The notes beneath the pieces were generated by a model. That model did no database searches. It was not told the origin of the DNA and saw nothing but the letters and a program-made list of their open reading frames with translations. 19,173 bases of DNA from positions 1 to 19,173 of the forward strand of contig JAFGOA010000077.1 in assembly GCA_016926735.1 (NCBI GenBank), written 5' to 3'. Positions 1,906-18,972 of the stretch are shown here, piece by piece. Made by a program: the position numbers and the translations under genes. Numbering within the stretch: position 1 is the stretch's first letter; every line of letters starts with the position of its first letter. This stretch comes from Promethearchaeota archaeon. Its GTDB lineage: Archaea; Asgardarchaeota; Lokiarchaeia; Sigyniarchaeales; SOKP01.

Positions 1906-2526
1906 TTGGTGATCAAATTAACAAGAGTTATAAACATACAAACCCCTATTAAAAAATATGCAAATTCAAGAAAAACAGCATTTCTTATTACAGATTCATT
2001 CAATCAAATTTATCACTGCTATTCCAATAAAGGAATAATCTTTGGAGATCTTTCAGATGAAGTAAATATTTTTGGAATTAAAAAGGGTAACTATAGAATT
2101 AAAATTAAATATCTTGAAAATCTTAATAAGGAAGTTACATATGATTTGCAGACCAAATTTAAAGATATATTATTCTATCTTAGTATAGTATTATTTATAG
2201 CTGTAATTGCTCTTTTTATATCATTTGTAGGATCTTCTGGATATTATTATTATTATTATTCTCCTTTGACTACATCATTAATTCCCTACCTTATAATAGG
2301 AGGAATAATTTTAATTGTTGCCCAAGTAAAACCGAAAAATGAAAGAAAATATTTAAGAGAATTAATAATGATGAATCGAAAGATAGATCTTGATGGACGT
2401 CTATTAATCGAAGAAAAATCTTCAATAGCAAAGAAATCAGTACCTCAAGCTAGATTTTGTACAGAATGTGGGCAAGAGGTGGATTCAAAATTAAAATATT
2501 GCACATTATGTGGTAATAGACTCTAA
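1906..2526 (+). CDS. Membrane protein with two TM helices and a C-terminal double zinc ribbon
   Basis: Soluble, probably beta-rich N-terminus; hydrophobic ILFYLSIVLFIAVIALFISFV and LIPYLIIGGIILIVA; C-terminal FCTECG-x8-YCTLCG. Start is TTG 1906 or GTG 1909. Confidence 0.8.
   Translation: MVIKLTRVINIQTPIKKYANSRKTAFLITDSFNQIYHCYSNKGIIFGDLSDEVNIFGIKKGNYRIKIKYLENLNKEVTYDLQTKFKDILFYLSIVLFIAVIALFISFVGSSGYYYYYYSPLTTSLIPYLIIGGIILIVAQVKPKNERKYLRELIMMNRKIDLDGRLLIEEKSSIAKKSVPQARFCTECGQEVDSKLKYCTLCGNRL
2242..2259 (+). repeat. (TAT)6 microsatellite encoding six tyrosines
   Basis: tattattattattattat, in frame, in the loop between the two TM helices. Confidence 0.9.
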
Positions 2527-3038: not shown

Positions 3039-3044
3039 AAGGTG
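3039..3044 (+). promoter_or_regulatory. Shine-Dalgarno-like site
   Basis: AAGGTG ends 9 nt before ATG 3054, which favours that start over GTG 3042. Confidence 0.55.
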
Positions 3045-3053
3045 CGAAAATCA

Positions 3054-3974
3054 ATGGAGAATCATACAGATAAAAAAATAGAGAGAGCAACAGAGATAGT
3101 TTGGAAGTTTTGGTGGTTTTGCGTATATCTTTTAATTTTACCATCAATTGTTATGGCAATTTCTTTTTTTATATGTAATAATTTTTTTAATAATTTTTCC
3201 TATGTATTATCTTTATCATTTTTCTTCTTTTTTATAGCTCAATTTATTTTTTTTAGATTCTTTGATAAATATCGAAAAAATCCTTTTTTTGGGACACAAA
3301 AAGTAAATTTTACCGCAAAATTAGGTATTATTTTTATAACACCCCTTATTTCTATGATTATTTCTATTTTATTTACCATAATAAATCTTACATCTATAGA
3401 ATTTCAATTAATTCCATTAATATATTTAGTGTGTATTTATCCTGTCATTTTTTTTTATTTAAGAAAGATGCCAATTCTATATTATAATTCAGAATTAGAT
3501 TCATTTATAAATATTAAAAAAAAATACTCTATAAGAGAAGTTTTTAAATATATAATTCTGATAAATTATATTTCCAATATTATCTTCTTTGCTTTCAATT
3601 ATAGCACAATTTATATCTCGACAGGAATTATTGTCGTGCTTAATCTTATATTTTTCTTAATAACAATGATATATACAAGACAAGAAAGAAAACTTTTCAA
3701 CGAAAATACAAGATTAACAGAAGAAGAACAAAAAAAAAATACTATAAACTATGATAAAAAAATTACAAATTCTCTTCTGAGTGAATTTTTCATTTTGATT
3801 ATTATTATAATTGGTCTAAATGTATATTTTTTTTTATTAGATAGTACAATCTCTTTTAAAGATTTAATTCCTTTTATCATTACATTCTTTTTAATATGTA
3901 TATTATATCTAAAGGCGATAATAATAACGTCTATATATTATAAAAATCAATTTCAAAACCTTAGAGGCGTCTAA
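3054..3974 (+). CDS. Uncharacterised polytopic membrane protein (~306 aa, about 8 TM helices)
   Basis: Helical hairpins separated by Lys/Arg-rich loops; N-terminal KKIERATEIVWKFWW. It ends 3 nt before the giant ORF, in the same frame. Confidence 0.85.
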   Translation: MENHTDKKIERATEIVWKFWWFCVYLLILPSIVMAISFFICNNFFNNFSYVLSLSFFFFFIAQFIFFRFFDKYRKNPFFGTQKVNFTAKLGIIFITPLISMIISILFTIINLTSIEFQLIPLIYLVCIYPVIFFYLRKMPILYYNSELDSFINIKKKYSIREVFKYIILINYISNIIFFAFNYSTIYISTGIIVVLNLIFFLITMIYTRQERKLFNENTRLTEEEQKKNTINYDKKITNSLLSEFFILIIIIIGLNVYFFLLDSTISFKDLIPFIITFFLICILYLKAIIITSIYYKNQFQNLRGV

Positions 3975-3977
3975 TCA

Positions 3978-6900
3978 ATGGAAAAAGAAGAAATATATAA
4001 TAAATCAACAATCAAATATCAAAATATTAACGCAATACTCACTTTCATATTATTAGTAACACTGATATTAATCTTATATATAAGTAATTTAAATTATCTG
4101 AATTTTATTTCTATACCTTTATTCTATATTATTATCTTTACAGAACATCATTATGGATATATTCAAAAGAAAAATATTGAAGTATTATATTTTATCTTAA
4201 CCATAGTTTCTTTAGGATATATTAGCTTCTTTATAATTCCAAATTCAATCTTTATTATCATTAAAATTTTAATCTTTACAATATCCATCTATTTTTCCTT
4301 AGAAATATTTAAACAAATAAATCTTTTTTTAGATGAGAAAGTAATTATTTGGCAAAATCTACTTTCAGTAATTGCATTCTTTTTAATTTCATATTCAATA
4401 TATCCGGCGATAATTGCGGAAGATGTTCTAAAGATATTAAATCCTGATGAATTATTAATAACAAGAATTCTGATTTTTCTAATCTTTTTCTTTTTCACAT
4501 TATTAATATCATTATATAGATTAAATTCCACATTCTTCAAAAATAAATCTTCAAAAATAATAAAATCAGCAATTATTACAAACTTTCTCGTATTAAATTT
4601 AGTGTTTGTATTATTTTTAGATTTTAGGACCTTCAATATTATAGATCGAAACTATTTTATCTCTTTTTCATTGTTTTCAGCTGTTATTTTCATTGTGATG
4701 TTTATATTGTTTGTCTATATTAATTTTATTTTTAAAGTTTTAAAAGAAATTACAGTAATTTTTTATCGAAGTATATGGATTCTTTTTCCATTGATTATTA
4801 CTACCTCAGCAATTACTTTTTGTATTCCCTTAATAATTTCTGAGAAAATAGATACCTTATTAATTACGCTCATTATACTAATGCATACTTTTATTTTATC
4901 TTGTTCTATACAAATTTTATTAAGATATGGTAATAAAATAGGTAAAATTTCACAAAAAAGGTATAATGAATTTGGAAAGATGACATTAATTTCAATAAGT
5001 ATTGAAATTTGTATAATTACCTTTCTTTTATCTTATATTGTTTTACAATTAGATTTAATTATATCTTTATTTTTATCATCATTGGTATTGGTGGCAATAG
5101 TTGCAATTCTGAATCGATATTATAAAAAATTATTAGAAAAATATGAAATTATCACATTCTCAATTAATCTTCTGTATTTAATTTCCATTATATTCTATTA
5201 TTCTCTATTCTTTACTCTTAATTCCGCTTATGTATACATTGTTCCTGGAATATTAACAAGTTTCTTTTTTAGTTTTTTTATTTTATATCTTATTTTTAAA
5301 AATATAAGAGCAAAATTTCTTAAAAAACTCTTAAAATGTGATTATATTATATTATCACTTTTTATAATATTAATTCCTACAGCAGAAAGTATTGAATTGA
5401 TTCATTTGGGGGTATATGTTGATCATATTACCACACTAAATTTAACAATCTATATTTTTTATATAATGCTTTTTGTTATTCATCTGATATCAAGAAAAAA
5501 AGAATTAAAACCTAAAAAATTATTATTGAAATCTGAAATCATAATAGGATTTATTTTAGCAGGAACTACAATCTTTTATTATCTATTTTTAATAATTCCA
5601 GGGCAATATATAAGAATAATCGTACCATTGATCATTTCTCTTTGTTATGTTTACATGCTTCTATTGATTACTCATAAAGAAGAGATTTTTAATAATCAAT
5701 TGATTCAAATTCTAATCGTTTTGGATATGCTAATATTAATTGGTCTTAGCGTGTCTTTACCATCATTTATAAATTTAGAATTAGAATTCTGGGATTCTCT
5801 CGGAGTTATTAATACTATAAATTGTAGTCTGTATATTTTTCTCATAGAACTTTTTATATTTTATTTCTTATCCAAAAAAAGATTATCTGGAAAATTTTCT
5901 TCTCCTATTCAAAAGTTAATAATTTTTATATGCTATATTTTAGCAGGAAGTACTATTTTCTACTATTTATTTTCAATAATTCCTGGAGAATATATAAGAA
6001 TTATAGTCCCATTGACAATCTCCCTATGTTATCTCTACATACTTTTAATAATTACTCATAAAAAAGATATTTTTAACAAACAAGCAATTCAAATTTTAAT
6101 CGTTTTGGATATGCTAATTTTAATTGGGCTTATAGTGTCATTACCAACATTTATAGGATTAGAATTAGAAATAAAAGATTCTCTTGGATTTATTAATACT
6201 ACTAATTTTAGTTTATATATTCTTTTTTCGGTTCTTTTCATATTTTATTTGATATCTAAGAAGAGATTATCAGAAAAATTCTCTTCTCGACTTAAAAAAG
6301 TTCAGATGATTATTTGTTATATTTTAGGTGGAACTACAGTATTTTATTATTTATCTTATATTATTCCAGGGCAATATATAAGAATAATATTACCATTAAC
6401 AATTACTTTCTCTTACTTATATCTTCTTCTTTTATTTTCACATAAAAAAGCTATTTTTAATAAAGAATTGGTCCAAAAATTCATCCTTTTAGATATTTTA
6501 GTTTTAATATGCTCAATAATACTCATTCCTACATTTATTCAACTTGAATTAACGACAATAAATAACGCCGTGGATGTAAAATATATTTTTATTTTCTCCC
6601 TATTATTATTATTTTTGTTTTTAAAATTTGCAGAATTCACAAGTGATAAATTAAATTTACGATCAATAATACTATCATATATTAAAATAGCTCTTATTCT
6701 ATCTTGGTTCTTAATTTGTTTATCTGGAGAATTTATTATCTATAACTATTTTGATATTCAACTACTCTTGGATTCTTATTTAATAGGAATTCTAATAAGC
6801 AGTATTTCTATTATTTCTTTTCTTATTTTTAGTAGTTATGTTATTAAATTAGTTAAGAATTTGGGAAAATTTTATAATTTTATCGAAAAAATACAATTAT

Positions 6901-9900
6901 CAGAAAGAACATTTAGAGTACAAAAGGCTTTAAAACTAGTATATATTTATGGAATACTTGTTAGTATTTCGCTTATTTTGAGTTCTTCAATTTTATATAT
7001 TAGTCTAATATTTGAAGATATGATTATTTTAGAGATTTTTAATCTTATTATATTTTCGAGTTTCTTCTTCATTTTATTGCATCCATTGTTTATTCTCTAT
7101 AAAGATAATGTAAATTTGCCTCAAATAAATCAGATGATAAAGAAATTTTCTCCTATATTTTTAATTATAGTCATAGAAATAATATATTCAGAAATTTTCT
7201 GGATTCTATTATCTTATGATATAATTCAAATTCTACTATATTTTTCAAGTATCGTTCTTATTACCTTTTTATATATTATTAATAAATCTAAATTAATAAA
7301 CTCAAAATTCTTGAAGATATACTTTTCTTTATTTATAGAAATTATATTAATATGCTTGAGTATCATATATAATGATTTAGAATATTTTATTGTTGGATTT
7401 ATAGTTTTATATTTACTTATCTCTTTAGAAAGACCTGATGATATGAGATATAAAGCTATTTTGTATCTTTCTGTAAGTATTATTGGTTTTCTAAAGATAA
7501 TTGAAGTACTAGAACGTGCAGACATTTTAGAAAGTATTTTAGAGCTTCCGTTGAGTATATTTATGATAATATATCTTATGAATTTTAGTGTGATTTTACT
7601 CATTTCAATGAGTCTAAACTATAAAAAACAGAATTATATTGAAAAATATATGTTATTTGGATTTACAGCAGGTAGCTTATTTTTCTATATTCTAAGCTTT
7701 ACACCAATACTATTGATTTATGATATCACTATTAGTTCTATGGTTTTACTTTTCTTTGTTATTGTTGATTTTTATCTTAATGAGAATCCTGTGTACAAAG
7801 CTTTCCTTAGACCTTGGTTTGTTTTATTATTTTTTAATCTAACTAGTTGGATATCATATTCCTTTCTTTTTATTGATCCTAATTACGATATCTATAACAT
7901 AATTTTAACATTTACACTGACATTTAGCATTACTTCCCTTTCGTTTGTATTATTGAACAACAATCTTCCTGATAAACTCAGAAAACCGACCTACATAATC
8001 TCACTTATTATTGTATGTCTAATGACTCCTATCTTTATTTATATGTTATTAATTTCCTATTTTGGCCTCTTTGCTGGAGATGTAATAATGATTATAATTC
8101 TTTTAAATATAATGATTCTTTTATTTTATTTCTCGATTGGTATATATCATTGGCAAATTTCTTGGGTAATATGGAAAATAGGTTGGAAAATATGGTTTTC
8201 AGTGCCTTTAATCAATTTTTATCTAATTTATAAAAATGTTGTTGGTTTGGATTTATTCACTGAAGCCGTCAATTTATTTGGATATTTTAGAATAGAAGGA
8301 TCTCTAATTATAACGATAATAATTTGTTCATTAATGTATCTTCCTGTTCTTTATTCTGCAATAAGAAAATATTTTACTATTATTATTATGGCTGTTTGGG
8401 GGGAATCTTTAGCACTAACTCTCTGGGCAGGTCAAAATCTATTCAAGGATGATTTAATACTTTCAAATCTATTTTTTGGGCTTGCTTCTTTATTTCTTTT
8501 AGCACCTATATTGTTAAAAAAAAGATATTGGAAAGTTTTATCTTTACTTTGGTTATTATTAATAATATTAAATATAGGTTTCTTAACATTCTTATTATAT
8601 TCTATGAATTTAACTACAGAATTAGTTATTTCAATTGATATTATTGCATTAGGAATATTTCTAATGGTATATTCATTCTTTCCGAAAGTCAGGAATTATT
8701 TGGTCTTTTTAATAATTTCTTATTCAATAATCTTTGGAGGAATATATCTTTTAATATATTTTATACTCTTTTATTTAATCAGTGATCCTATATTATCTTT
8801 TAATATCGCTTCTTTATTCATCTCAGGAGCATTGTTAAGTTCAAAGTACTTTCAATTAAATCAGAAATTAATAAGAGGTCTAATTTCAATTTTAGTGCTT
8901 TCAAACTTATCTTGTTTAACTTACATTTACCTGAATATGTTCCCAAATATGGAAATACTATCCATAGCATCAGCTTTAACAACAGGTTTAATTTCATTGT
9001 TAATTTTTAATCATTTTAACTATATATTACGATCAATTGATTTTGCGTTCTTATGGATATTATTAGGATGTAGTATATCATTTTTGTCAACCTCTGCTTT
9101 ATATTTACTTATTCCTAAGAATATATTTCTCATATCCGCCATTTCATGTTTTATAGGTTTTCTATTCATTCAAAGAATTATGAAGGATATAAAATATCTT
9201 CTTATCTATTTATATCCAATTCCACTATCTTTTCTATTCCTATCCACATATGATTATTTTCAAATATTTAATATCTTTATAGTAATTCTTTTTCTTCTGA
9301 TATATCTTATTTCTCTTCAAATTTTAATTACAATTTTTTATCAATTATCAATAAAAGAAAGAGAAAACCCTAATGGCCCTATTTATAAATATGTTGAGAA
9401 TTTAAGTAAAGTTAAGCTTATTCATTTATTATGTTTTACTTTTAATTCACTTTACATTTCTTTATTAATTTCATTGTTTTGTCTCAATATTTTCTATTAT
9501 CAAATAATATCTTTTTTTATAATTTATCCCATCTTGAATATTCTTATCTTATATTATTTAAAAATAAATAGCGAATATTTTTCATTTAAGGGAATCCAAT
9601 CATTATTAAAAATATTTGGATCATTATTTTTTTCAACTATTCCATTTTCAGTATCAAGTTTAGTTACTTATTTCTTTATGGAAATTAATTTTCCTCTCAT
9701 TTACACAATACCTTTAATTTTTATAATCTTTAATGGAATACTGTTTTTAGAACTTAACTTGAATAATTATGCAATAAAATTCTTTATAGGTAATACAAAT
9801 AAATATTTCATTTTATTATCCATATTTTTTTTAACTAATTCAATCGCAGTATTATTTTTAATATCATTATTATCTTTTTCTAATTTAGAAATTCTCTCTC

Positions 9901-12227
9901 TATGCCTAATGTTCTTAATTTCATTACTAGGATTAAATCTATTATCTTTAAATATCTCTGAAAGATTTTTATCACAACAAAATGTAATCTTTAATAAATT
10001 TCATAATTTATTGTCAATTTTAAGTTATATTTTAATTATTGGAGTATTTTCAAGTTTTCTATCAGAAGGTACATTATTTTTCTTATCTGATCTGAAATTT
10101 ATGGAATTTAGCTATTATCTTCTATTTATATGTTATTATGCAATAGTACTATATTTTATTTTATCAATTATTAAAATTATAAAAGAAGAAAAATTATATC
10201 TAATAGCTTCAATTTCTTATTCAATCTTCCAAATAACACTTACTCTTAATATTATAAATTATGGAATAGTTTATGAAAATATTTCATTAATACTAATAAA
10301 TTCCATAGTTTTCTTAAATCTTGTACTTTCTTATCTTTCTATCATACTACTTAATATTTTTAATATCAAATTTAATTATAATTATATTTCAAATAAACTC
10401 CAGAGATTTTTATCTAACATCATCTATGTATATGTAAATGTTTTACTCTTTTCTATTTTATTTTGTTATTTTAATATCTACATAAGTCTTTGTGCTTCAA
10501 TTGGAATGTATATAATAATTATAATCGTTGATATAATATTTTTTAAACAAATTAGTAATAACAAAGGATTATTATTGCTTATACCGCTGATAATATTTTT
10601 TTCCATTACATTAATCCTCGTTCTATATCAATATTTTATATTTCCAATTGTTTATTTTAAATTATCATTTCTATGCTTAGTTTCAATCCAGTTTATAACC
10701 AACTATTTATATTTGATATATAAAATATTAAAAATCAGAAATAATACAATAGATAGTAAAATTAAATTGTCCTATATTGAGAATTGGGATAAAAGAAGAA
10801 AAATGATAATAGGAATATGCTTATATATTTCACTTATCATCTTTATTCAAGATTTAATAGGATTGCTTGAGATTTCATATCAATTGTTTATTATTGGAAT
10901 CATTATTTTTTCTCTCTCATTTATTGATGATTTTACTTTTGATTTTCTGTATGGTGTGAAAGAATACGTTAAAGTAATATCGTGGATAATAATAATGATT
11001 ACTTCTAATTCATTTATATTTACTGTTGTCCCTATTGTTATTTTTCAATCATTTATTATAAGGATTCCAATTTTTATTCTAATTATAGATTTAGAATTGA
11101 TATTTTTATTATACATACTACAACATTGGAATTACTTTAAGAAAAATAAACATTCTTTTATGTTATTTTTCTATCAAATTCTATCATTTGATATTGCTTC
11201 ATTTCCCCTATTTTATCTAAATGTAGATCCCATTTTAGACCTTAATCTATTAATCCTTTCATTGATAATTATAGTCTCTTTATTAAATGCAATAAGAATA
11301 ATAAAGGATTACAAGAATGATAAAATAGATAAAATAAATCGTTCTTTATTATTTACGCTAATAAATCTAATTTGTATAGATTTATTTATTCTATTTGAGG
11401 TATTTTTAAGCCCAGAATATATTATATTCAATATTTATTTAAATATTAATATTGCATTAATTCTTCTATTGATTCTATATGCAATTTTCTTTAAAATATT
11501 TACACAAAAATTATTAAAATCTCGCTTTATTTTTTGGTTATTGATATCTATTTTCATTGGTACAATTATCTTTCAAACAACATATTATTTCAATTATTTT
11601 CCATTTATCTCCAGTTTTTCATTTATGATTTTTTCAATATTTTTATTTCCATTTATTTTTCTTATGGAGAAATTAAAAGAGATCTTTAATAATTTTGTTG
11701 AAAAAATCAAGGAATTTATTATTTTAATTGAAAATAAGTTTGTAAATCTATATAAGAATATAATTTCTTTCCTGAAACATAATTGGATTATTATTTGGTC
11801 TATCATCTCTGTTTTCACAGGAATTATTATATTTTTGCTATTAGGTCTTTTTATTGTTCAATATTGGGTTTATTCATTTATTATTTGTATAGGGTTAGTC
11901 TTTTTTATGATCTTTTATAATATATCTATAAAATCATCTGAGGATAATCCCGGAAAATTACTTAAATACCGTATTATCTATTTAAGTAGTGGATGGTTAT
12001 CAATAATAGGGATAATTCTTAGTTATATTGAAGCAGAATTCTATATAATTACAGTTTTATTATCTTTTACAATATTAGGTGCGATATTTCTCCCTTATAT
12101 TTATTATAAAGAGAAAAAAGAGAAAATATCTATAAAATGGCGATTTTATTCAACTATATTTTTTATAATTATATTAATAATAACTATAGCATTATTTTAT
12201 TTCCAATTTATGTCAAATTATTTTTAA
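3978..12227 (+). CDS. Giant uncharacterised polytopic membrane protein (2749 aa)
   Basis: 8.25 kb uninterrupted ORF in very AT-rich DNA; SD-like GAGGCG at 3964-3969; I/L/F/Y-dominated hydrophobic segments alternate with short basic loops over the whole length; no recognisable soluble domain. Confidence 0.92.
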   Translation: MEKEEIYNKSTIKYQNINAILTFILLVTLILILYISNLNYLNFISIPLFYIIIFTEHHYGYIQKKNIEVLYFILTIVSLGYISFFIIPNSIFIIIKILIFTISIYFSLEIFKQINLFLDEKVIIWQNLLSVIAFFLISYSIYPAIIAEDVLKILNPDELLITRILIFLIFFFFTLLISLYRLNSTFFKNKSSKIIKSAIITNFLVLNLVFVLFLDFRTFNIIDRNYFISFSLFSAVIFIVMFILFVYINFIFKVLKEITVIFYRSIWILFPLIITTSAITFCIPLIISEKIDTLLITLIILMHTFILSCSIQILLRYGNKIGKISQKRYNEFGKMTLISISIEICIITFLLSYIVLQLDLIISLFLSSLVLVAIVAILNRYYKKLLEKYEIITFSINLLYLISIIFYYSLFFTLNSAYVYIVPGILTSFFFSFFILYLIFKNIRAKFLKKLLKCDYIILSLFIILIPTAESIELIHLGVYVDHITTLNLTIYIFYIMLFVIHLISRKKELKPKKLLLKSEIIIGFILAGTTIFYYLFLIIPGQYIRIIVPLIISLCYVYMLLLITHKEEIFNNQLIQILIVLDMLILIGLSVSLPSFINLELEFWDSLGVINTINCSLYIFLIELFIFYFLSKKRLSGKFSSPIQKLIIFICYILAGSTIFYYLFSIIPGEYIRIIVPLTISLCYLYILLIITHKKDIFNKQAIQILIVLDMLILIGLIVSLPTFIGLELEIKDSLGFINTTNFSLYILFSVLFIFYLISKKRLSEKFSSRLKKVQMIICYILGGTTVFYYLSYIIPGQYIRIILPLTITFSYLYLLLLFSHKKAIFNKELVQKFILLDILVLICSIILIPTFIQLELTTINNAVDVKYIFIFSLLLLFLFLKFAEFTSDKLNLRSIILSYIKIALILSWFLICLSGEFIIYNYFDIQLLLDSYLIGILISSISIISFLIFSSYVIKLVKNLGKFYNFIEKIQLSERTFRVQKALKLVYIYGILVSISLILSSSILYISLIFEDMIILEIFNLIIFSSFFFILLHPLFILYKDNVNLPQINQMIKKFSPIFLIIVIEIIYSEIFWILLSYDIIQILLYFSSIVLITFLYIINKSKLINSKFLKIYFSLFIEIILICLSIIYNDLEYFIVGFIVLYLLISLERPDDMRYKAILYLSVSIIGFLKIIEVLERADILESILELPLSIFMIIYLMNFSVILLISMSLNYKKQNYIEKYMLFGFTAGSLFFYILSFTPILLIYDITISSMVLLFFVIVDFYLNENPVYKAFLRPWFVLLFFNLTSWISYSFLFIDPNYDIYNIILTFTLTFSITSLSFVLLNNNLPDKLRKPTYIISLIIVCLMTPIFIYMLLISYFGLFAGDVIMIIILLNIMILLFYFSIGIYHWQISWVIWKIGWKIWFSVPLINFYLIYKNVVGLDLFTEAVNLFGYFRIEGSLIITIIICSLMYLPVLYSAIRKYFTIIIMAVWGESLALTLWAGQNLFKDDLILSNLFFGLASLFLLAPILLKKRYWKVLSLLWLLLIILNIGFLTFLLYSMNLTTELVISIDIIALGIFLMVYSFFPKVRNYLVFLIISYSIIFGGIYLLIYFILFYLISDPILSFNIASLFISGALLSSKYFQLNQKLIRGLISILVLSNLSCLTYIYLNMFPNMEILSIASALTTGLISLLIFNHFNYILRSIDFAFLWILLGCSISFLSTSALYLLIPKNIFLISAISCFIGFLFIQRIMKDIKYLLIYLYPIPLSFLFLSTYDYFQIFNIFIVILFLLIYLISLQILITIFYQLSIKERENPNGPIYKYVENLSKVKLIHLLCFTFNSLYISLLISLFCLNIFYYQIISFFIIYPILNILILYYLKINSEYFSFKGIQSLLKIFGSLFFSTIPFSVSSLVTYFFMEINFPLIYTIPLIFIIFNGILFLELNLNNYAIKFFIGNTNKYFILLSIFFLTNSIAVLFLISLLSFSNLEILSLCLMFLISLLGLNLLSLNISERFLSQQNVIFNKFHNLLSILSYILIIGVFSSFLSEGTLFFLSDLKFMEFSYYLLFICYYAIVLYFILSIIKIIKEEKLYLIASISYSIFQITLTLNIINYGIVYENISLILINSIVFLNLVLSYLSIILLNIFNIKFNYNYISNKLQRFLSNIIYVYVNVLLFSILFCYFNIYISLCASIGMYIIIIIVDIIFFKQISNNKGLLLLIPLIIFFSITLILVLYQYFIFPIVYFKLSFLCLVSIQFITNYLYLIYKILKIRNNTIDSKIKLSYIENWDKRRKMIIGICLYISLIIFIQDLIGLLEISYQLFIIGIIIFSLSFIDDFTFDFLYGVKEYVKVISWIIIMITSNSFIFTVVPIVIFQSFIIRIPIFILIIDLELIFLLYILQHWNYFKKNKHSFMLFFYQILSFDIASFPLFYLNVDPILDLNLLILSLIIIVSLLNAIRIIKDYKNDKIDKINRSLLFTLINLICIDLFILFEVFLSPEYIIFNIYLNINIALILLLILYAIFFKIFTQKLLKSRFIFWLLISIFIGTIIFQTTYYFNYFPFISSFSFMIFSIFLFPFIFLMEKLKEIFNNFVEKIKEFIILIENKFVNLYKNIISFLKHNWIIIWSIISVFTGIIIFLLLGLFIVQYWVYSFIICIGLVFFMIFYNISIKSSEDNPGKLLKYRIIYLSSGWLSIIGIILSYIEAEFYIITVLLSFTILGAIFLPYIYYKEKKEKISIKWRFYSTIFFIIILIITIALFYFQFMSNYF
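5548..6551 (+). repeat. Intragenic tandem repeat, 384-nt (128-aa) period, about 2.6 well-conserved copies, with a diverged copy at ~5170-5547
   Basis: The equivalent Ala/Gly codons of ILAGTTIFYYL, ILAGSTIFYYL and ILGGTTVFYYL start at 5559, 5943 and 6327 (exactly 384 nt apart). IIPG(Q/E)YIRII(V/L)PL occurs three times, and IQILIVLDMLILIGL and SKKRLSxKFSS twice. Confidence 0.95.
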
Positions 12228-12443: not shown

Positions 12444-14294
12444 ATTATAGAATTATTTAAATATATATATAAGAAATCTCCTATTGGACTAAGCATCTAT
12501 ACTAATCGAGGAAATTTAATTATTGCAAATAATTCTTATTTAAAAGTGTTTGGTGTTAATTTTGAACATGATATAAAAAAATTTAATCTTTTTGAAGATA
12601 TCGGAATTCCAAAAGAAATAATTTCAAATTTTAAGGAAAAAGGGAATAATATTTTTGAATATGTAATAAATACAAATCTAATTTATAAAAAAAGTAAAAT
12701 TATTACTCCAGATAAAGATAATTGTTATTTTAATTTTATAATTACACCTTTTATTTTTAAAAAAGAAAAAATTATTTACCTTCTCGTTCAAATTCAAGAT
12801 ATTACAGAGAAAAAACTTAGCGAAAATCTATTAATAGAGAATAACCAAATATTCAAATCAGTTGTTGAAGAATCAAGATCAGGAATATTTGTAGTAAATG
12901 ATAATTATCAAATAATTTATGCTAATAAAAAAAGTAGTGAGATCTTAGGAGAATCCTTAGAAAACCTAATAAATAAAGATTTTCGAAAATTTGTTTCAAA
13001 AAGAAATAGAGAAAAAATGAGTAATCTATATAGACAACAACAGAAGGGAATGATTATCCCTACAAACTATGAATTTAGTCTTACAAATAAAAAAGGAGAA
13101 ACAAGATATGTAGAATTAAATGTGGAAGTTATTAAAATTAGCAATAATCCTAAAACAATTGTAAAATTTATAGATAAAACAGAACAAATAAAAGCAGAAA
13201 AAGAATTAAGGGAGTCTGAAATTAAATTTAAAAAAATTTTTGAAATAATTCCAGATTTATTTTTTTTAGTAAAAAAAGATAGCACAATATTAGATTATAA
13301 AGGAGATTTAGACAATCTCTATTTATCACCAAAAGAATTCTTAAATAATAAAATATCTGAGCTTTTACCAGAAGATATTGCAAATCGTGCTTTAATTGGT
13401 ATTAAAAAAGCATTAGAAACGAAGAAACAACAAATATTAGAATATCAGCTCCCATTTAATGATGAAATTCGTTTTTATGAAGCAAGAATTTTATATTTTA
13501 AAGAAAATGAAGTTGTTATTTTTGTAAGAAACATTACAGATCGTAAAAAAACTGATAGTATTTTACAAGAAGAATATAAGAGGCTAAAAGAAATTGATAA
13601 TATTAGAAAAAATCTTATTTCTAGTGTATCTCATGAATTAAAGACACCAATTATGGCAATAAGTAATGCTTCAGAATTTCTCTTGGATGTTTTTGGAGAA
13701 AAATTAGGTCCAGAACCTTTAGAACTTTTAAAAATAATAAATTCAAATGAAAGGAGATTAGAAAGATTAATTAATGATTTACTTGATATAAGTCGAACTA
13801 GCTATAGTAAAATACAGTTAGATAAAAAAAAATGCAATATTAGTAATTTAATACAAAATATATCTAATGAAATGGATTATCTTATAAAAGAACGCAATTT
13901 ATCACTTACCCTAGACCTACTTAATATGGTTTATATTAGTATAGATATTATTAGAATCGAACAGGTTATAATTAATCTTCTCACAAATGCAATAAAAAAT
14001 ACTCCTCCAGGAGGAAATATACATATTACTATGAAAAAAATTAATGATTATCTTGAAATTAGGTTTATTGATACAGGTATAGGGCTAACTAAGGATGAAA
14101 TAAACAGACTTTTTACACAATTTGGAAGATTGGAACGATATGGTGAGGGTTTAGAATATCTTGATATAAAAGGTTCAGGATTAGGATTATATATTTCAAA
14201 AGAAATAATAAAAATGCATAATGGTGAAATTCAAGCGAAATCAAAAGGTAGAAATATGGGTAGTTCATTTATTATAAAAATTCCATTTGGATAA
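12444..14294 (+). CDS. Cytoplasmic PAS-PAS-PAS sensor histidine kinase (HisKA + HATPase_c); start probably upstream of GTG 12546
   Basis: H-box SSVSHELKTP, N-box EQVIINLLTNAIK, G1 DTGIG, F-box LFTQF, G2 GSGLGLYISKEII; PAC-type ends QDITEKK, IDKTEQ and RNITDRKK. The frame is open from 12429 and encodes a PAS N-terminus (LFKYIYKKSPIGLSIYTNRGNLIIANNSYLKVFG). The start coordinate is an inference. Confidence 0.88.
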   Translation: MIELFKYIYKKSPIGLSIYTNRGNLIIANNSYLKVFGVNFEHDIKKFNLFEDIGIPKEIISNFKEKGNNIFEYVINTNLIYKKSKIITPDKDNCYFNFIITPFIFKKEKIIYLLVQIQDITEKKLSENLLIENNQIFKSVVEESRSGIFVVNDNYQIIYANKKSSEILGESLENLINKDFRKFVSKRNREKMSNLYRQQQKGMIIPTNYEFSLTNKKGETRYVELNVEVIKISNNPKTIVKFIDKTEQIKAEKELRESEIKFKKIFEIIPDLFFLVKKDSTILDYKGDLDNLYLSPKEFLNNKISELLPEDIANRALIGIKKALETKKQQILEYQLPFNDEIRFYEARILYFKENEVVIFVRNITDRKKTDSILQEEYKRLKEIDNIRKNLISSVSHELKTPIMAISNASEFLLDVFGEKLGPEPLELLKIINSNERRLERLINDLLDISRTSYSKIQLDKKKCNISNLIQNISNEMDYLIKERNLSLTLDLLNMVYISIDIIRIEQVIINLLTNAIKNTPPGGNIHITMKKINDYLEIRFIDTGIGLTKDEINRLFTQFGRLERYGEGLEYLDIKGSGLGLYISKEIIKMHNGEIQAKSKGRNMGSSFIIKIPFG

Positions 14295-14652: not shown

Positions 14653-14925
14653 ATGGGTCGCACAATTCCTTCTTTTAGACCTGCATTAGAACATGAAATT
14701 GAGAGTTGGAAAGATTTTAAAAGAGCACTTAGACCAGAAGATCAAAAGGTTTTTGACAAATTAATGATTTTTGCTCGAATTCATGCGGATGCTGGTAGTT
14801 TTAGTGCTCGTCCAATACTATCGGAATTATTATTTATGTGTTTTGCAATCGAGCAGAATAAAAAAATCGAAGAATTAACAAAAAAAGTTAATGAATTAGA
14901 AGAAATAATAAGGAAAGATAAGTAA
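14653..14925 (+). CDS. Small alpha-helical PolB2-associated protein (arCOG07300-like)
   Basis: MGRTIPSFR...WKDFKRALRPEDQKVFDKL...ARIHADAG matches, from memory, the small family encoded beside archaeal polB2. It has a C-terminal coiled coil and its stop codon directly abuts the polB2 start. Confidence 0.8.
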   Translation: MGRTIPSFRPALEHEIESWKDFKRALRPEDQKVFDKLMIFARIHADAGSFSARPILSELLFMCFAIEQNKKIEELTKKVNELEEIIRKDK

Positions 14926-17331
14926 TTGTTCGCTCAAAAACAATTTGATGGATGGCTTCTTGATGTATCAACATATGATAGTGGAGTAATTCTTTGGGTA
15001 AAACATAAAGAAAATATAGTTAAAATTTATGATTTTTTTCATCCAGAATTTTATGCTGTTCCAAATAAAGGAATAGAAAACAATATCGAAAGACTAAGAT
15101 ATATTCTTGAGGGGCATCCTCATGCTAAGACTATAAAATTATATGAAAAATATGTTAAACTGGAAGACAATGAAAAATCAAATGTATTTGGATTTTCAGT
15201 AACAAAACCATCTGTTTTTAAAAAAACAATAGAGGAAATAAATCAAATTAATTTATTTACATTATATAATACTGATCTTCCACTTGCACAAATGTATCTG
15301 TATGTTAAGAATCTATTCCCGATGTCTTATTGCTGCTTTAAAGTAAAGAATAAGCTTAATAATAAAAATAAACAAGAAATATTAGAATTAATCTCCTTGG
15401 AGTTGAAGGATGACAATGAAAAATTATTCTATGATCTTCCTCCTCTAAAAGCTATATGGCTAAAGGTTAAAATTCGACATAAAGAAATACATCCATACTA
15501 TAATGATGTTCTTGAATATATTGAAGTTAGCTTGATTGAGAATGATAAAAATAATGTACCTAGAGCAGATGGATATAAAAAAAAGAAGATATTTATTGAT
15601 GAGGCAGATGAAGCAGAAACATTAAAAAAAGTAAGTACGATTGTAGAAAAGATTAATCCAGATATTATTTTAACTCAAAATGGTGATGAGTTCGTTTTTC
15701 CATATTTAGCTGCTAGAGCCTCTGTAAATCAAGTATCAAACGAACTATATTTTTCAAGAGATAAAACTCCACTAAAAAATTGTATTTTTGAATTATCTAG
15801 TAGTTCAGATCATTATATCTCATATGGTATCATTTTTCGCCGTTCTAAAACGCAAGTATACTTTAATGGACGATTTCATTTGGATACTACATCTTATGCT
15901 AGCTTACATTTTAGTGACGGTAATATCCCAGGAGTAATAGAAGTTGCACGAATTTCACGTGTTCCGTTGCAGAGACTATGTAGAATCACAATAGGGGGTG
16001 CTTTACAATCAATTCAATATTATAATTCATACAAACTCGATCATCTTATCCCTCCCTTTAAAAAGAGTCCTGAAGGGTTTAAGAAAAGCATAGAATTACT
16101 TTATAGCGATCGAGGAGGTCATATTTTTGAACCAAAAATTGGTATTTTTGAAAACGTAATTGAACTTGATTTTTCTTCGATGTATCCCTCTTTAATGGCA
16201 ATATATAATATATCCTCTGAGACCATTAATTGTAATTGCTGTAAAAAGGATGGTACAGGGATAAAAGTTCCAGGCTTGAACTTTCATATTTGTACAAAAA
16301 GACAAGGCATTATCTCAAAGTCTATAAAATTACCATTAGAAAAGCGTTTGAGATATAAAGAATATAATAAAAGTCATAATGACATTAGATACCAATTTAC
16401 AGATAAAGCTCTTAAATGGGTACTTGTTGTAAGTTTTGGATACTTGGGATTTAAAAATGCTCGATTTGGTAAAATTGAAGCACATCAAACAGTTTGCGCT
16501 TTTGCTCGTGAATTTTTACTTCGAGCTGCGGAAATTGCTCAAAAACATGGATGTGAAATTATTCATGGAATTGTTGATTCAATTTGGCTAAAAGACAGAA
16601 AAAATCGTTCTACAGAAGATTTTGAAAATATAACAAAAAAGATTGTTGATGAAATTACAGTTCATACAAATATTCCAATGAATTGGGAGGGACGATATAA
16701 TATTATTATATTTCTTCCATCTAAAGCAGAAGCAAATGTACCTGCACTTAGTCATTATTGGGGTATTAAAAGCAATGGCGAAATAAAAGTAAGAGGAATA
16801 GAAGTAAGACGAAGAGATATCCCAATAATAATAAAGAATGCTCAATATGATTTTATAAATGTTTTTAAAACAACAACTTCGGTTAAAGATTTTATGGAAA
16901 ATATTTCTCAAGCAAAAAAGATTCTTTATGAATATGCTAATCGTATTTTATCAGGAAATATATCCAAAAAGGAATTATCAATAAAGCAAAAGATCTCGAG
17001 GAAACCAGGAGAATATAAAGTGAATTCATATCAAGCAGTTGCATCAAAACAATTAGAACGATCTGGAGTTGTTGCATCAGCAGGTAAAAATGTGGAATAT
17101 ATCATTCTAAACGCAGAAGCAGATCCTAATTTTCCAGAAAAAAAAGTCATTCTTTCAGATCTTTATAATGAAAAACAACATCAATATGACAAAAAAAAAT
17201 ATATCGAACTACTAAAAAGATCTTTTGAAAATATATTTCCAATAAAATTTCCTGAAATTGAAGAGCTCTTAAATTTAAACTATAATCAAAAATTTCTACA
17301 AAGAAATTTAGAGAAATACATGAACAAATAG
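14926..17331 (+). CDS. polB2: Family B DNA polymerase, archaeal PolB2 (Dpo2-like) group, proofreading probably inactive
   Basis: Motif A ELDFSSMYPSLM, motif B KWVLVVSFGYLG, motif C HGIVDSIW (YGDTDS variant typical of PolB2) and KVRGIEVRRRD. ExoI lacks D-x-E (KAIWLKVK) and ExoII is NGDEFVFPYL instead of NGDxFDxPYL. Confidence 0.92.
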   Translation: MFAQKQFDGWLLDVSTYDSGVILWVKHKENIVKIYDFFHPEFYAVPNKGIENNIERLRYILEGHPHAKTIKLYEKYVKLEDNEKSNVFGFSVTKPSVFKKTIEEINQINLFTLYNTDLPLAQMYLYVKNLFPMSYCCFKVKNKLNNKNKQEILELISLELKDDNEKLFYDLPPLKAIWLKVKIRHKEIHPYYNDVLEYIEVSLIENDKNNVPRADGYKKKKIFIDEADEAETLKKVSTIVEKINPDIILTQNGDEFVFPYLAARASVNQVSNELYFSRDKTPLKNCIFELSSSSDHYISYGIIFRRSKTQVYFNGRFHLDTTSYASLHFSDGNIPGVIEVARISRVPLQRLCRITIGGALQSIQYYNSYKLDHLIPPFKKSPEGFKKSIELLYSDRGGHIFEPKIGIFENVIELDFSSMYPSLMAIYNISSETINCNCCKKDGTGIKVPGLNFHICTKRQGIISKSIKLPLEKRLRYKEYNKSHNDIRYQFTDKALKWVLVVSFGYLGFKNARFGKIEAHQTVCAFAREFLLRAAEIAQKHGCEIIHGIVDSIWLKDRKNRSTEDFENITKKIVDEITVHTNIPMNWEGRYNIIIFLPSKAEANVPALSHYWGIKSNGEIKVRGIEVRRRDIPIIIKNAQYDFINVFKTTTSVKDFMENISQAKKILYEYANRILSGNISKKELSIKQKISRKPGEYKVNSYQAVASKQLERSGVVASAGKNVEYIILNAEADPNFPEKKVILSDLYNEKQHQYDKKKYIELLKRSFENIFPIKFPEIEELLNLNYNQKFLQRNLEKYMNK

Positions 17332-17335
17332 AGAA

Positions 17336-18091
17336 CTATTCAATCCAAGTATTTAAAGTTGTATTTCTCGATCTTTTAGCAAGATTTCTCTTTGGTATAC
17401 ACGTTTTCCATTTCACAATTCGATGTTCTGATAGAAAAGGATGTTGAACAAGAGTGTATTCCACATATCTCTCTTCATTGTTCACTAATACTAACACATT
17501 TCCAAAGTGAGAAAGTATTTTTCCTCCTTTTGGTCTAAAAAAAGAAGATTTGTGTAGAGGTGCTGTGATGATAATCAAAGGATCTGTTTTTGATAGTATT
17601 TTTTTTATACCTCCAATCATTTTTAATAAATCTTCAAATGTTTGCTTTTCGTAATTTTGAAGAAGATCTGTAATCCCAGAGATTAAAACAACCTTTATTT
17701 CTTCGAGTTTAGCAAGTTGATTTTCTAAGAGCTCAACCATTTGATCCCAAGTGAATGCTCGTGCAATAACTATATTTTCTAGGACTTTTCGAGGAGATAA
17801 ATTGTGTATAACAGAAAATTTACTGATATTATAAGGATTAAAACGATTTTTACCATCAACAAAAGCAACTTTAATACCTTCACCCATTCCTCCATTTGAT
17901 GAGGATTGTTGAACGATAACAGAAGTATATAGGAGAATGTTTGTTACTACTTTCTCGTCTCCATATAGTAAATAAACCAAATTTCTATGAAAACCACCGT
18001 TTAAAAGTTTGTCTAAAGTAACATCTCCCGTTGAAATAGGAGAGTAATGACTGTTATTCTTATGTACCCCAAATCCTGATTTAAAGTGCAT
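17336..18091 (-). CDS. RadA/Rad51-like RecA-fold protein with degenerate Walker motifs (ImuA-analogue)
   Basis: ISTGDVTLDKLLNGG, FVDGKNRFNPY, LENIVIARAFTWDQM and GGKILSH are RadA-like. Walker A reads YGDEKVVTN and Walker B reads VVLISGI; there is no N-terminal HhH domain. ATG 18091 is preferred to GTG 18127 because the extension is a T-run. Confidence 0.85.
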   Translation of the reverse strand: MHFKSGFGVHKNNSHYSPISTGDVTLDKLLNGGFHRNLVYLLYGDEKVVTNILLYTSVIVQQSSSNGGMGEGIKVAFVDGKNRFNPYNISKFSVIHNLSPRKVLENIVIARAFTWDQMVELLENQLAKLEEIKVVLISGITDLLQNYEKQTFEDLLKMIGGIKKILSKTDPLIIITAPLHKSSFFRPKGGKILSHFGNVLVLVNNEERYVEYTLVQHPFLSEHRIVKWKTCIPKRNLAKRSRNTTLNTWIE

Positions 18092-18114
18092 TATGAAATG
18101 TAATACAGAAAAAA

Positions 18115-18147
18115 AATAAAAATGCACAACGCCGACAATTTTCTGAA
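18115..18147 (-). promoter_or_regulatory. Candidate promoter of the RadA-like gene (TTCAGAAAAT motif plus TATA-like TTTTTATT)
   Basis: On the minus strand, TTCAGAAAAT at 18147-18138 and TTTTTATT at 18122-18115, 23 nt before ATG 18091, consistent with a leaderless transcript. Confidence 0.35.
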
Positions 18148-18426: not shown

Positions 18427-18972
18427 ATGTCAGAAAAAAAATCTTTCATTTATAAAATCTGTATAGTAGGAGATGGAGGGGTTGGAAAGACCTCTTTGGT
18501 GTTACGTTATTGTGAAGATGCATTCAAAGATAACTACATAATGACGATTGGATCTAATTTTTCTACAAAGAGTGTAGTTCTACCAGAGTATCCTAATTAT
18601 GATATAAAATTACAATTATGGGATTTAGCTGGTCAAAAACATTTTAGTTTTGTACGTCCTCCCTTTTATCGTGGAGCAACAGGTATTATATATGTTTATG
18701 ATTTAACTAGACGTAGTTCATTTGCAAGTATGGCAAATTGGAAAGAAGAAGTTGAAAAAGTAATTGGACTAAAATCAAGTATAATCGTTGGAAATAAATT
18801 AGATCTTGCTGATGATAATCATAGAGAGATTGGAGCTCAAGATGGAGAAGCATTAAAAGCAGAAATGAATGCACTCTCTTATTATGAAACAAGTGCAAAA
18901 GATGGAATTAATGTCGAATCTATCTTTAGAGATATTACTCTAGGTATCTTAAAGGATTTTAATAAGATATAG
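18427..18972 (+). CDS. Rab-like small GTPase (Ras superfamily)
   Basis: G1 GDGGVGKT, G2 TIG, G3 WDLAGQ, G4 GNKLD, G5 ETSAK; RabF-like IGSNF, KLQLW, FYRGA and YVYDLT; no C-terminal Cys prenylation motif. Confidence 0.95.
   Translation: MSEKKSFIYKICIVGDGGVGKTSLVLRYCEDAFKDNYIMTIGSNFSTKSVVLPEYPNYDIKLQLWDLAGQKHFSFVRPPFYRGATGIIYVYDLTRRSSFASMANWKEEVEKVIGLKSSIIVGNKLDLADDNHREIGAQDGEALKAEMNALSYYETSAKDGINVESIFRDITLGILKDFNKI

Follow-up and report, generated by a model that had tools for sequence, protein, structure and literature searches.

Three kinds of described protein stand closest to the one considered here. Piezo channels are described as having 38 transmembrane (TM) helices per chain; the bacterial DUF2339 proteins (PF10101), multi-span membrane proteins whose function is unknown, are all-helical and repetitive and have no soluble domains; and the prokaryotic 'Archaeovorin'-type multi-domain giants of the Omnitrophota, known from metagenomes, combine very great size with a large number of predicted TM helices (bioRxiv 10.1101/2023.11.21.568195, accessible portion). 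A preprint on giant genes also notes that, among archaea, the Asgard group holds the largest number of proteins longer than 10,000 amino acids (aa). The DNA analysed here, referred to as the window, is the whole 19,173-nucleotide (nt) stretch at positions 1–19,173 of contig JAFGOA010000077.1 (assembly GCA_016926735.1, Promethearchaeota archaeon), and its subject is a giant open reading frame (ORF) at 3978..12227 on the forward strand, which starts with ATG and encodes a protein of 2749 aa (P0001). This ORF is a protein-coding gene for a giant integral membrane protein with a predicted 85–88 TM helices, and we are highly confident that it is a real gene of a novel family. The family is under purifying selection, is confined to one order of Lokiarchaeia and was previously undescribed. 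Its architecture is that of a unique, strongly conserved 24-helix core flanked by arrays of 4- and 8-helix modules in variable copy number.

Hydropathy was computed on the Kyte–Doolittle (KD) scale in 19-residue windows and counted as non-overlapping segments, which gave 81 hydrophobic segments at a threshold of 1.6, 74 at 1.8 and 66 at 2.0. The longest stretch of low hydropathy comprises 33 aa (residues 2246–2278). The number of Lys and Arg residues (K+R) in successive loops alternates along the chain (0, 4, 0, 6, 0, 7 and so on; totals 118 versus 58), with an autocorrelation of −0.57 at lag 1 and +0.44 at lag 2, each value being reached by none of 2000 shuffles. Since this alternation is that of the positive-inside rule, the segments were taken to cross the membrane truly and in alternating directions. 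Structures were predicted with AlphaFold2 for the core (residues 1141–1880, 60-sequence alignment; predicted local distance difference test score (pLDDT) 84, predicted template-modelling score (pTM) 0.65) and for the C-terminal part (residues 1881–2749, 47-sequence alignment; pLDDT 82, pTM 0.45), and both models are all-helical except for one small beta-hairpin. The core model contains 24 membrane-length helices versus 21 KD segments, and its in/out alternation is strict across the 60 sequences, with a mean K+R per loop of 2.5, 0.17, 2.6, 0.17, 3.3, 0.15 and so forth; the C-terminal model contains 28 long helices, of which about 27 are of membrane length and 24 have a 17-residue window with a KD value of at least 1.5, versus 25 KD segments. 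Elsewhere, 34 KD segments were counted in residues 1–1140 and 8 in an N-terminal module encoded by a separate ORF upstream (described below). Hydropathy segments calibrated on the two models put the 2749-aa chain at about 85–88 predicted TM helices and the whole unit, N-terminal module plus main chain, at roughly 93–96, and nowhere in that unit does a domain outside the membrane exceed about 35 residues; the loops are very short, the cytoplasmic ones rich in Lys and Arg. The original prediction, which described an all-membrane protein without soluble domain and estimated 80–85 helices, stands in both respects.

A word-indexed search returned 90 homologue clusters of 1534–3754 aa, the best being 67% identical over 100% of the query. 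Their source names are only those of hypothetical, membrane or zinc-ribbon proteins, and the named sources are all metagenome-assembled genomes of Lokiarchaeota, Promethearchaeota, Hodarchaeota or Thorarchaeota. Hydrophobicity is equally high in all 90 clusters (grand average of hydropathy (GRAVY) 0.96–1.24, 40–100 segments), only a few of which carry a hydrophilic insert of 40–80 residues. An 800-aa core query found a match in 115 of 400 genomes of the phylum, the window's own genome (G000) included; carriers amount to 114/153 in the window's order (100/134, 1/1, 11/14 and 2/4 in its four families f1–f4) and to 0/246 among the genomes of the phylum outside that order. When the core profile was compared exhaustively with 1.84 billion representative proteins by hmmsearch, 62 proteins were matched at E ≤ 0.001 and 60 at E ≤ 1e-10, with no tail of weaker, more distant matches; most of the 62 are at least 1,000 aa long (up to 4,905 aa), the core lying well inside a longer chain, and the others are short and probably fragments. 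Intact ORFs of 2540–4908 aa are present in all 20 loci that were fetched, in DNA of 24–34% G+C, and the core remains recognisable at 20–22% identity. Homologues of a sister family (L020, L018, L021) are much longer, at 3940–4908 aa, and the closed genome G138 (L020) carries two copies, of 3146 and 4908 aa.

The ratio of nonsynonymous to synonymous substitution rates (dN/dS) was 0.23 against a 93%-identical fragment from genome G159 (1107 codons, dS 0.16, unsaturated) and 0.19–0.21 against genome G158 (3055 codons, dS about 1). In strain contigs of the sequencing runs X2 and X3, 21 of 39 changed codons were synonymous versus 21% expected at random, as counted from the 40 best-supported of 409 differences. 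The same residue occupies 209 positions in at least 80% of 91 aligned rows, and 25 columns are invariant among 46 diverse members. The G159 fragment (L062, G159:C131) diverges abruptly in its last ~150 bases and meets a stop ~50 bases short of where the contig ends; a chimera or mis-assembly at that end seems likelier than a genuine truncation. In its own genome, which is 99.3% complete, the giant gene is single-copy. One metatranscriptome of the same study (X18) contained no match to the gene, a result that is uninformative either way.

Coverage of the giant protein by blastp among the 90 homologues is uneven, with 85 matching at residues ~1250–1750, ~55 at 2250–2700, ~47 at 50–600 and 16–20 at 600–1100. 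The part matched in 85/90 is the core (residues 1141–1880; 7398..9617, forward strand), in which profile comparison detected no internal repeat. Fourteen columns of the core are invariant over 60 sequences, and the invariant residues (60/60) present in the giant protein itself include W1399, P1410, N1413, P1456, W1474, F1489, P1510, W1518, W1525, F1535, P1569 and Y1582. As judged from the invariant columns and the AlphaFold2 secondary structure, the most conserved element is a hairpin at residues 1392–1464 (8151..8369, forward strand), whose first helix begins at the cytoplasmic face with a ladder of Trp residues on one side (W1392, W1396, W1399, W1403 and W1406, in 4-3-4-3 spacing) and is kinked at the invariant P1410 and N1413. 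From there the chain passes through a short, acidic loop on the outer side, which holds a beta-hairpin (1428–1440), into the return helix, kinked at the invariant P1456. A re-entrant loop of short helices at 1396–1464 was considered and rejected on the basis of the family's charge pattern (inside, acidic outside, inside), with K+R averaging 1.2 before the hairpin, 0.42 in its middle loop (Asp+Glu (D+E) 2.1) and 2.9 after it, a pattern that corresponds to two full Pro-kinked TM helices.

The region preceding the arrays, residues 1–367 (3978..5078, forward strand), is a conserved N-terminal membrane region with a blastp match in ~47/90 homologues and near-invariant residues E56, Q126, Y180, N249 and W267. 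It is followed at 5079..6623 (forward strand) by a tandem array of four 128-aa units of 4 helices each (residues 368–498, 499–625, 626–753 and 754–882). Repeats were detected by profile–profile comparison of 250-residue windows; the 128-aa units match one another with hhalign probabilities of 95–100% and show 4 KD segments each, and Tandem Repeats Finder (TRF) reports a 384-nt period with 2.5 copies at 5552–6508. A hidden Markov model (HMM) built in two rounds from the window's own units found 2–6 tandem copies in 45 of 95 family proteins (two copies in 18, three in 15, four in 11 and six in 1). Stand-alone copies of the unit were sought as well, with only 2 short matches that are probably fragments. 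The 4-helix, 128-aa repeat on which the earlier helix estimate had been extrapolated is therefore real, as shown by TRF, the profiles and the four copies, but it is a local array and not the building block of the whole protein; it accounts for 515 of the 2749 residues, and helix density is similar along the entire chain.

Behind the core lies a second repeat type, with two units of ~255 aa and 8 helices each at 9609..11102 (forward strand; residues 1878–2134 and ~2139–2375) and a weaker third copy beyond. Probabilities from hhalign were 98% for residues 1878–2116 versus 2139–2375 and 72% for 2001–2239 versus 2269–2500; AlphaFold2 places 8 helices in residues 1882–2127, and the HMM of the unit finds 1–5 copies in 80/95 family proteins. 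Further downstream, a 39-residue amphipathic helix (residues 2563–2601; 11664..11780, forward strand; helix 683–721 of the C-terminal model) is too weakly hydrophobic to span the membrane, its best 17-residue KD value being 0.99, and E2564 at its start is conserved in 46/47 sequences. The chain ends with a cytoplasmic juxtamembrane motif, E-K-I-S-I-K-W-R-F-Y (residues 2712–2724; 12111..12149, forward strand), which precedes the last helix. E2712 and R2722 are invariant in 47/47 sequences, and all 29 C-terminal tails that could be read to the stop codon finish in the E..KWRFY motif followed by one helix. Conserved exposed elements are few, and they are cytoplasmic: the Lys/Trp start of the ladder helix, helix 2563–2601 and the KWRFY motif. 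Inside the membrane, conserved acidic residues are buried at E1476 (51/60 sequences), E2373 (44/47) and D2468 (39/47), and 18 conserved Asn, Gln, Ser or Thr residues lie at least 7 residues inside core helices.

Comparison with known proteins placed the family far from any known kind. An hmmscan of the whole giant protein against Pfam-A returned no family at E ≤ 0.01, and scans of 60 core segments (E ≤ 1) and of 47 C-terminal and 17 N-terminal segments (both at E ≤ 0.1) returned single-member noise only; NCBIfam gave nothing above noise for the giant protein and 5 homologues, and two family profiles found no PDB sequence at E ≤ 1. Foldseek searches of the PDB had best E values of 0.6 (core) and 0.04 (C-terminal model), with none at E ≤ 0.001. 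VIA-align against 48,161 chains gave best Z scores of 9.3 for the core (127 aa, root-mean-square deviation (rmsd) 3.8) and 9.8 for the C-terminal model (a 78-aa helical hairpin, rmsd 2.7), both within the noise for helical models. Recognition in the ESM Atlas, searched with the core and with residues 1–1140, was low, the matches being unnamed bacterial clusters at 0.92 and 0.76 and DUF2339 at 0.82. The last of these is the nearest named cluster for the core, its score lying below the lead threshold and the family being annotated on 46% of its members, and PF10101 gave no row in the Pfam scan of the giant protein or of the core, C-terminal and N-terminal segments. No description of the family was found in a full-text literature search, which did not extend to subscription journals and supplements, nor is it mentioned in the accessible part of a survey devoted to lineage-specific families of archaea.

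In layout only, Piezo may be called the nearest analogue. Both are very large chains consisting mostly of TM helices, both contain tandem 4-helix units (here the four 128-aa units, 2–6 in relatives, likened by layout and not by fold), and in both a better-conserved, non-repetitive part stands beside more variable repeat arrays. The giant protein differs in that it matches no Pfam family, those of Piezo included, and no Piezo chain is found among the Foldseek and VIA-align rows listed for the core and C-terminal models. It also lacks an extramembrane cap or beam, no globular domain being present in the C-terminal 869 aa as modelled; it has more than twice as many helices; its conserved part is central whereas that of Piezo is C-terminal; and it has a second, 8-helix repeat type and is archaeal, within one order only. 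The 'Archaeovorin'-type proteins are set apart by their description, at more than 30,000 aa with many soluble domains between helices; the giant protein has no soluble domain, nor any domain that could be recognised. The statements of the original prediction that no homology to Piezo is visible, that the protein is undescribed and that its source is probably an Asgard archaeon are in agreement with the Pfam and other sequence searches, with the blanks drawn in Pfam, NCBIfam, PDB sequences and the literature, and with the exclusively Asgard lineages of the named homologues. It had also proposed checks by selection analysis, by phyletic distribution and by structure prediction followed by Foldseek; the first two gave the low dN/dS values and the single order reported above, and the third, carried out for residues 1141–2749, gave no confident match to a known family. 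The interpretation offered there is supported in part, the proposed solenoid geometry and the roles in membrane shaping, mechanosensing or lipid handling being conjectural.

As to function, the giant protein would be expected to act within or across the membrane. The mechanism ranked first, which we hold with low confidence, is that the core is the working part and would pass or bind small polar species or lipid head groups, and that the variable arrays would make up an extensive periphery within the membrane, setting the footprint of the protein and coupling the core to the state of the membrane; the likeness to Piezo would be one of layout only. Large polytopic proteins that lack soluble domains are for the most part channels or transporters, and it is because of this background together with the buried carboxylates and dense buried polar residues of the core that a conduit was placed first. 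The residues concerned are E1476, E2373, D2468, N1413 and many Ser, Thr, Asn and Gln deep in helices, and the Pro-kinked Trp-ladder hairpin belongs to the same basis. Taken as a whole, the account of a real gene, a novel family, a two-chain unit and a conduit with arrays is the best explanation we can offer, although its chances fall short of even.

Several observations weigh against this account. The searches run gave no fold or sequence likeness to a channel, transporter or scramblase, and the pTM of the two models is only 0.65 and 0.45. Most of the invariant residues are Trp, Phe, Tyr, Pro, Asn or Gly, which fit packing or a lipid interface equally well. Two further buried residues conserved in most members, E2152 and H2311, are Tyr and Phe, respectively, in the giant protein and its genus, and hence are not essential. 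No conserved operon partner was found across the loci compared (16 from the same family, 4 from the sister family). A profile search showed the gene to be absent from five genomes of the same family that are 92–99% complete (G161, G165, G167, G169, G173), so that it is dispensable and not universal, and an in-frame TAA upstream of the giant ORF, considered below, could mark the onset of gene loss in this genome.

A bolder version of the conduit mechanism is rather unlikely. It would regard the whole unit, as one polypeptide or its two-chain equivalent, as a mesoscale intramembrane machine of ~95 helices and of a hitherto undescribed kind, in which a conserved, polar-lined core serving as a gated conduit for ions, solutes or lipids is combined with expandable ribbons of 4- and 8-helix modules that sense or impose membrane tension and curvature. 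Archaea would then have arrived independently at the principle of Piezo, in a protein over twice as large, and the machine might be linked to the wall-less, protrusion-forming Asgard envelope.

Second to the conduit stands a possible but doubtful reading in which the protein is purely an intramembrane scaffold or platform that performs neither transport nor catalysis and occupies and organises a patch of membrane, roughly 85–95 nm2 by our own estimate if each helix takes ~1 nm2. Such a scaffold could, for example, make the membrane stiffer, bend it or divide it into zones, or it could tether cytoplasmic partners by way of the conserved exposed elements. Module copies of 2–6 and 1–5 and lengths of 2.5–4.9 thousand aa speak for it, and this variation suggests that size itself is an adjustable parameter. 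The predominance of Trp, Phe, Tyr, Pro, Asn and Gly among the invariant residues and the lack of soluble domains and of partners in cis point the same way. The Foldseek likenesses of both models are exclusively to soluble alpha-solenoids of the TPR/HEAT type; with E values of 0.04–3 and TM-scores of ~0.1 they are not significant and carry no weight. Known purely structural polytopic proteins are rare and small, which tells against a scaffold of this size. A core kept at 20–22% identity with buried Glu, Asp, Asn, Ser and Thr argues instead for a specific activity, and the gene is absent from several genera of the same family. Counted in favour of the scaffold is a glycoproteome study on a cultured representative of the phylum, in the accessible part of which S-layer proteins are reported to be without evidence (PMC11284389); a membrane-intrinsic support in that setting would, in our view, be conceivable.

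Third, and improbable, comes an enzyme or translocase that would handle lipids or glycans inside the membrane, such as a polymerase, a flippase or a lipid-modifying enzyme; its active site would lie in the conserved core, and the Trp-rich element would bind sugars or head groups. The Trp ladder and the conserved Asn, Asp, Ser and Tyr near the membrane interface would suit such a role, and in 8 of 16 same-family loci (L004, L006–L009, L011, L014, L015) the giant gene is directly preceded on its own strand by a glycoside hydrolase gene of family GH4 (~440 aa). Neither the window nor its genus nor any of the four sister-family loci has the GH4 gene, however; the Pfam and NCBIfam searches matched neither GT-C, Wzy, MurJ or MOP nor another family, nor is such a fold among the structure matches, and conserved charged candidates for catalysis are few, two of them varying within the family. 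The gene order in the same-family loci runs from an MFS transporter through a class I/II aminotransferase and GH4 to the giant gene, then to either a PAS kinase or a solute-binding protein with two permeases, and in some loci DNA polymerase B follows further downstream. At the four sister-family loci the gene is flanked by an entirely different set (PhoU, SPFH, acyltransferases and genes of histidine biosynthesis), and because of these unrelated neighbours the order was read as inherited synteny. Operon context, kept only inside the taxonomic family, was accordingly rejected as a functional clue.

The gene unit begins upstream of the giant ORF, at 3042 or 3054, and is interrupted by one TAA. 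The original prediction gave the ORF correctly as 3978..12227, but these bounds omit the N-terminal module at 3042..3974 (forward strand), a separate 310-aa membrane ORF in the same frame with ~8 KD segments. It starts with GTG at 3042 or with the ATG at 3054, the latter lining up with the first residue of several homologues, the closest one among them, and ends with the TAA at 3972..3974 (forward strand), after which a TCA (Ser) and the ATG of the 2749-aa ORF follow. In 54/90 homologues the module forms residues 1 to ~300 of the giant protein (P0002 at 74% identity), and in the other 36/90 it was not matched by blastp at E ≤ 1e-3. Two loci of other genera, L014 and L016, have a giant ORF without the module and, directly upstream, a separate ORF that overlaps the start of the giant ORF and matches the window's module ORF at blastp E values of 3e-35 and 2e-30, respectively. 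Because the module is fused in those 54 homologues and separate in these two loci, the junction was taken as a natural fission point. The two-ORF state of the window is plausibly functional, and we think it likely that the unit works as two chains, in which case the two polypeptides would be expected to assemble as they do in the fused homologues.

Association of the two chains receives weak support from co-folding. The N-terminal module with residues 1–680 of the main chain gave an interface score (ipSAE) of 0.37 (runs 0.32–0.40) against 0.00 for the best of 3 controls, with 100% contact agreement between runs and a partner pLDDT of at least 66. In benchmarking, the mark applied to this score was reached by 116/157 solved complexes and by 2/215 mismatched pairs, the range up to a score of 0.60 comprising 18/157 complexes and both of the passing mismatches.

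Also unlikely is the reading of the locus as a young pseudogene, in which the TAA at 3972 would be a nonsense mutation that unlinks the N-terminal module and starts the locus on its way to loss, an outcome already reached in some genera. The TAA does align to CAG (Gln) in the closest relative (L002, 68% identical overall), and the family is missing from the five near-complete genomes named above. On the other hand, an ATG follows two codons past the stop, two other genera have a natural gene boundary at this very junction, and the 9.2 kb of the unit contain no further stops or frameshifts. Against L002, dN/dS is 0.16 for the module and 0.19 for the remainder, besides the 0.23 obtained with the G159 fragment, and the window protein deviates from the consensus at 41 of the 209 best-conserved positions, compared with 40 and 39 in intact relatives of the genus. 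A Logan contig of run X1 covers 3042–12043 with no differences, and as X1 is possibly the source sample this contig is not independent. The junction was sought by DNA search in the sister genome G159 (89% complete) without a match, and the strain contigs from X2 and X3 are short pieces, ~94–96% identical, none of those listed spanning position 3972.

The composition of the giant gene is extreme. Its G+C content is 21.4% (26.2% genome-wide; local DNA ~21%), and the protein consists of 20.0% Ile, 17.3% Leu, 10.8% Phe, 5.2% Lys and 1.6% Arg, so that Ile, Leu and Phe together make up 48%. Its GRAVY is +1.17, versus −0.25 to −0.37 for the other ORFs of at least 2,000 aa in the same genome (11,376, 4,461, 3,998, 2,529, 2,207 and 2,040 aa), and of the genome's 1433 open frames with 300 aa or more, 33 have a GRAVY of at least 0.9, the longest after the giant protein being 847 aa. 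Since the genome's other giant ORFs are hydrophilic, the hydrophobicity cannot be put down to A+T richness. The longest of these frames (11,376 aa; G000 contig C69, forward strand, from ~34015; GRAVY −0.37), like those of 4,461 and 3,998 aa, is regarded as encoding a giant soluble or surface-type protein unrelated to the giant membrane gene. The last alternative, that there is no real gene and that the hydrophobic frame is an artefact of extreme A+T richness, draws on this composition and on the A+T-rich codons of Ile, Leu, Phe, Tyr, Asn and Lys, but it is refuted and its probability is negligible, because stop codons are A+T-rich too and are expected by our own arithmetic about once per 10 codons at the local base composition, so that a frame of 2749 codons is not attributable to chance, and because conservation across the family reaches down to 22% identity, Trp, Pro and Asn residues being invariant, dN/dS is ~0.2, K+R alternates across the loops, and the homologue P0084 has a GRAVY of 0.96 though its Ile, Leu and Phe amount to only 37% and its Ala, Gly and Val to 20%.

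The remainder of the window holds several further genes. Directly downstream of the giant gene lies a histidine kinase with PAS/PAS/HisKA/HATPase architecture (12546–14294, forward strand); a similar kinase is found at or near that position in L002, L003, L004 and L005, and in the other genera an ABC set of solute-binding protein and permeases takes its place. An ORF of 90 aa (14653–14925, forward strand) ends exactly where the ORF of a family-B DNA polymerase (PolB, 14926–17331) starts; it has no Pfam match, occurs at 74–86% identity beside PolB in five related loci (L002, L003, L013, L014, L015) and may be a conserved small PolB-associated protein. Upstream, an ORF at 1906–2526 (forward strand) encodes 206 aa with hydrophobic segments and a C-terminal zinc ribbon, and its only conserved counterpart is at L002, a locus of the same genus (54% identity); a zinc-ribbon insert also occurs in the N-terminal module of the giant-protein homologues P0005–P0007, at residues ~138–220. 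Towards the end of the window, a fragment-sized ORF of 263 aa (17336–18127, reverse strand) encodes a Rad51/RadA-like ATPase and an ORF of 181 aa (18427–18972, forward strand) a Ras-family small GTPase (Ras, E = 2e-46), both typical of Asgard genomes.

If the helix count holds, the giant protein has by far the most TM helices seen in one chain, more than twice the 38 of Piezo, and next to nothing of it lies outside the bilayer, which raises the questions of how such a chain is inserted and folded and of what a protein can do wholly in the plane of the membrane. The natural variation of the family provides ready-made experiments, with 2–6 and 1–5 module copies, fused and split N-terminal modules, and carriers and non-carriers within one taxonomic family. 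The order includes genomes assembled to a single contig, and the protein may therefore be obtainable for proteomics, cryo-electron tomography and cryo-electron microscopy. Asgard membranes and the Asgard envelope are central to ideas on eukaryogenesis, and a lineage-specific protein covering tens of nm2 would be a new object in that setting.

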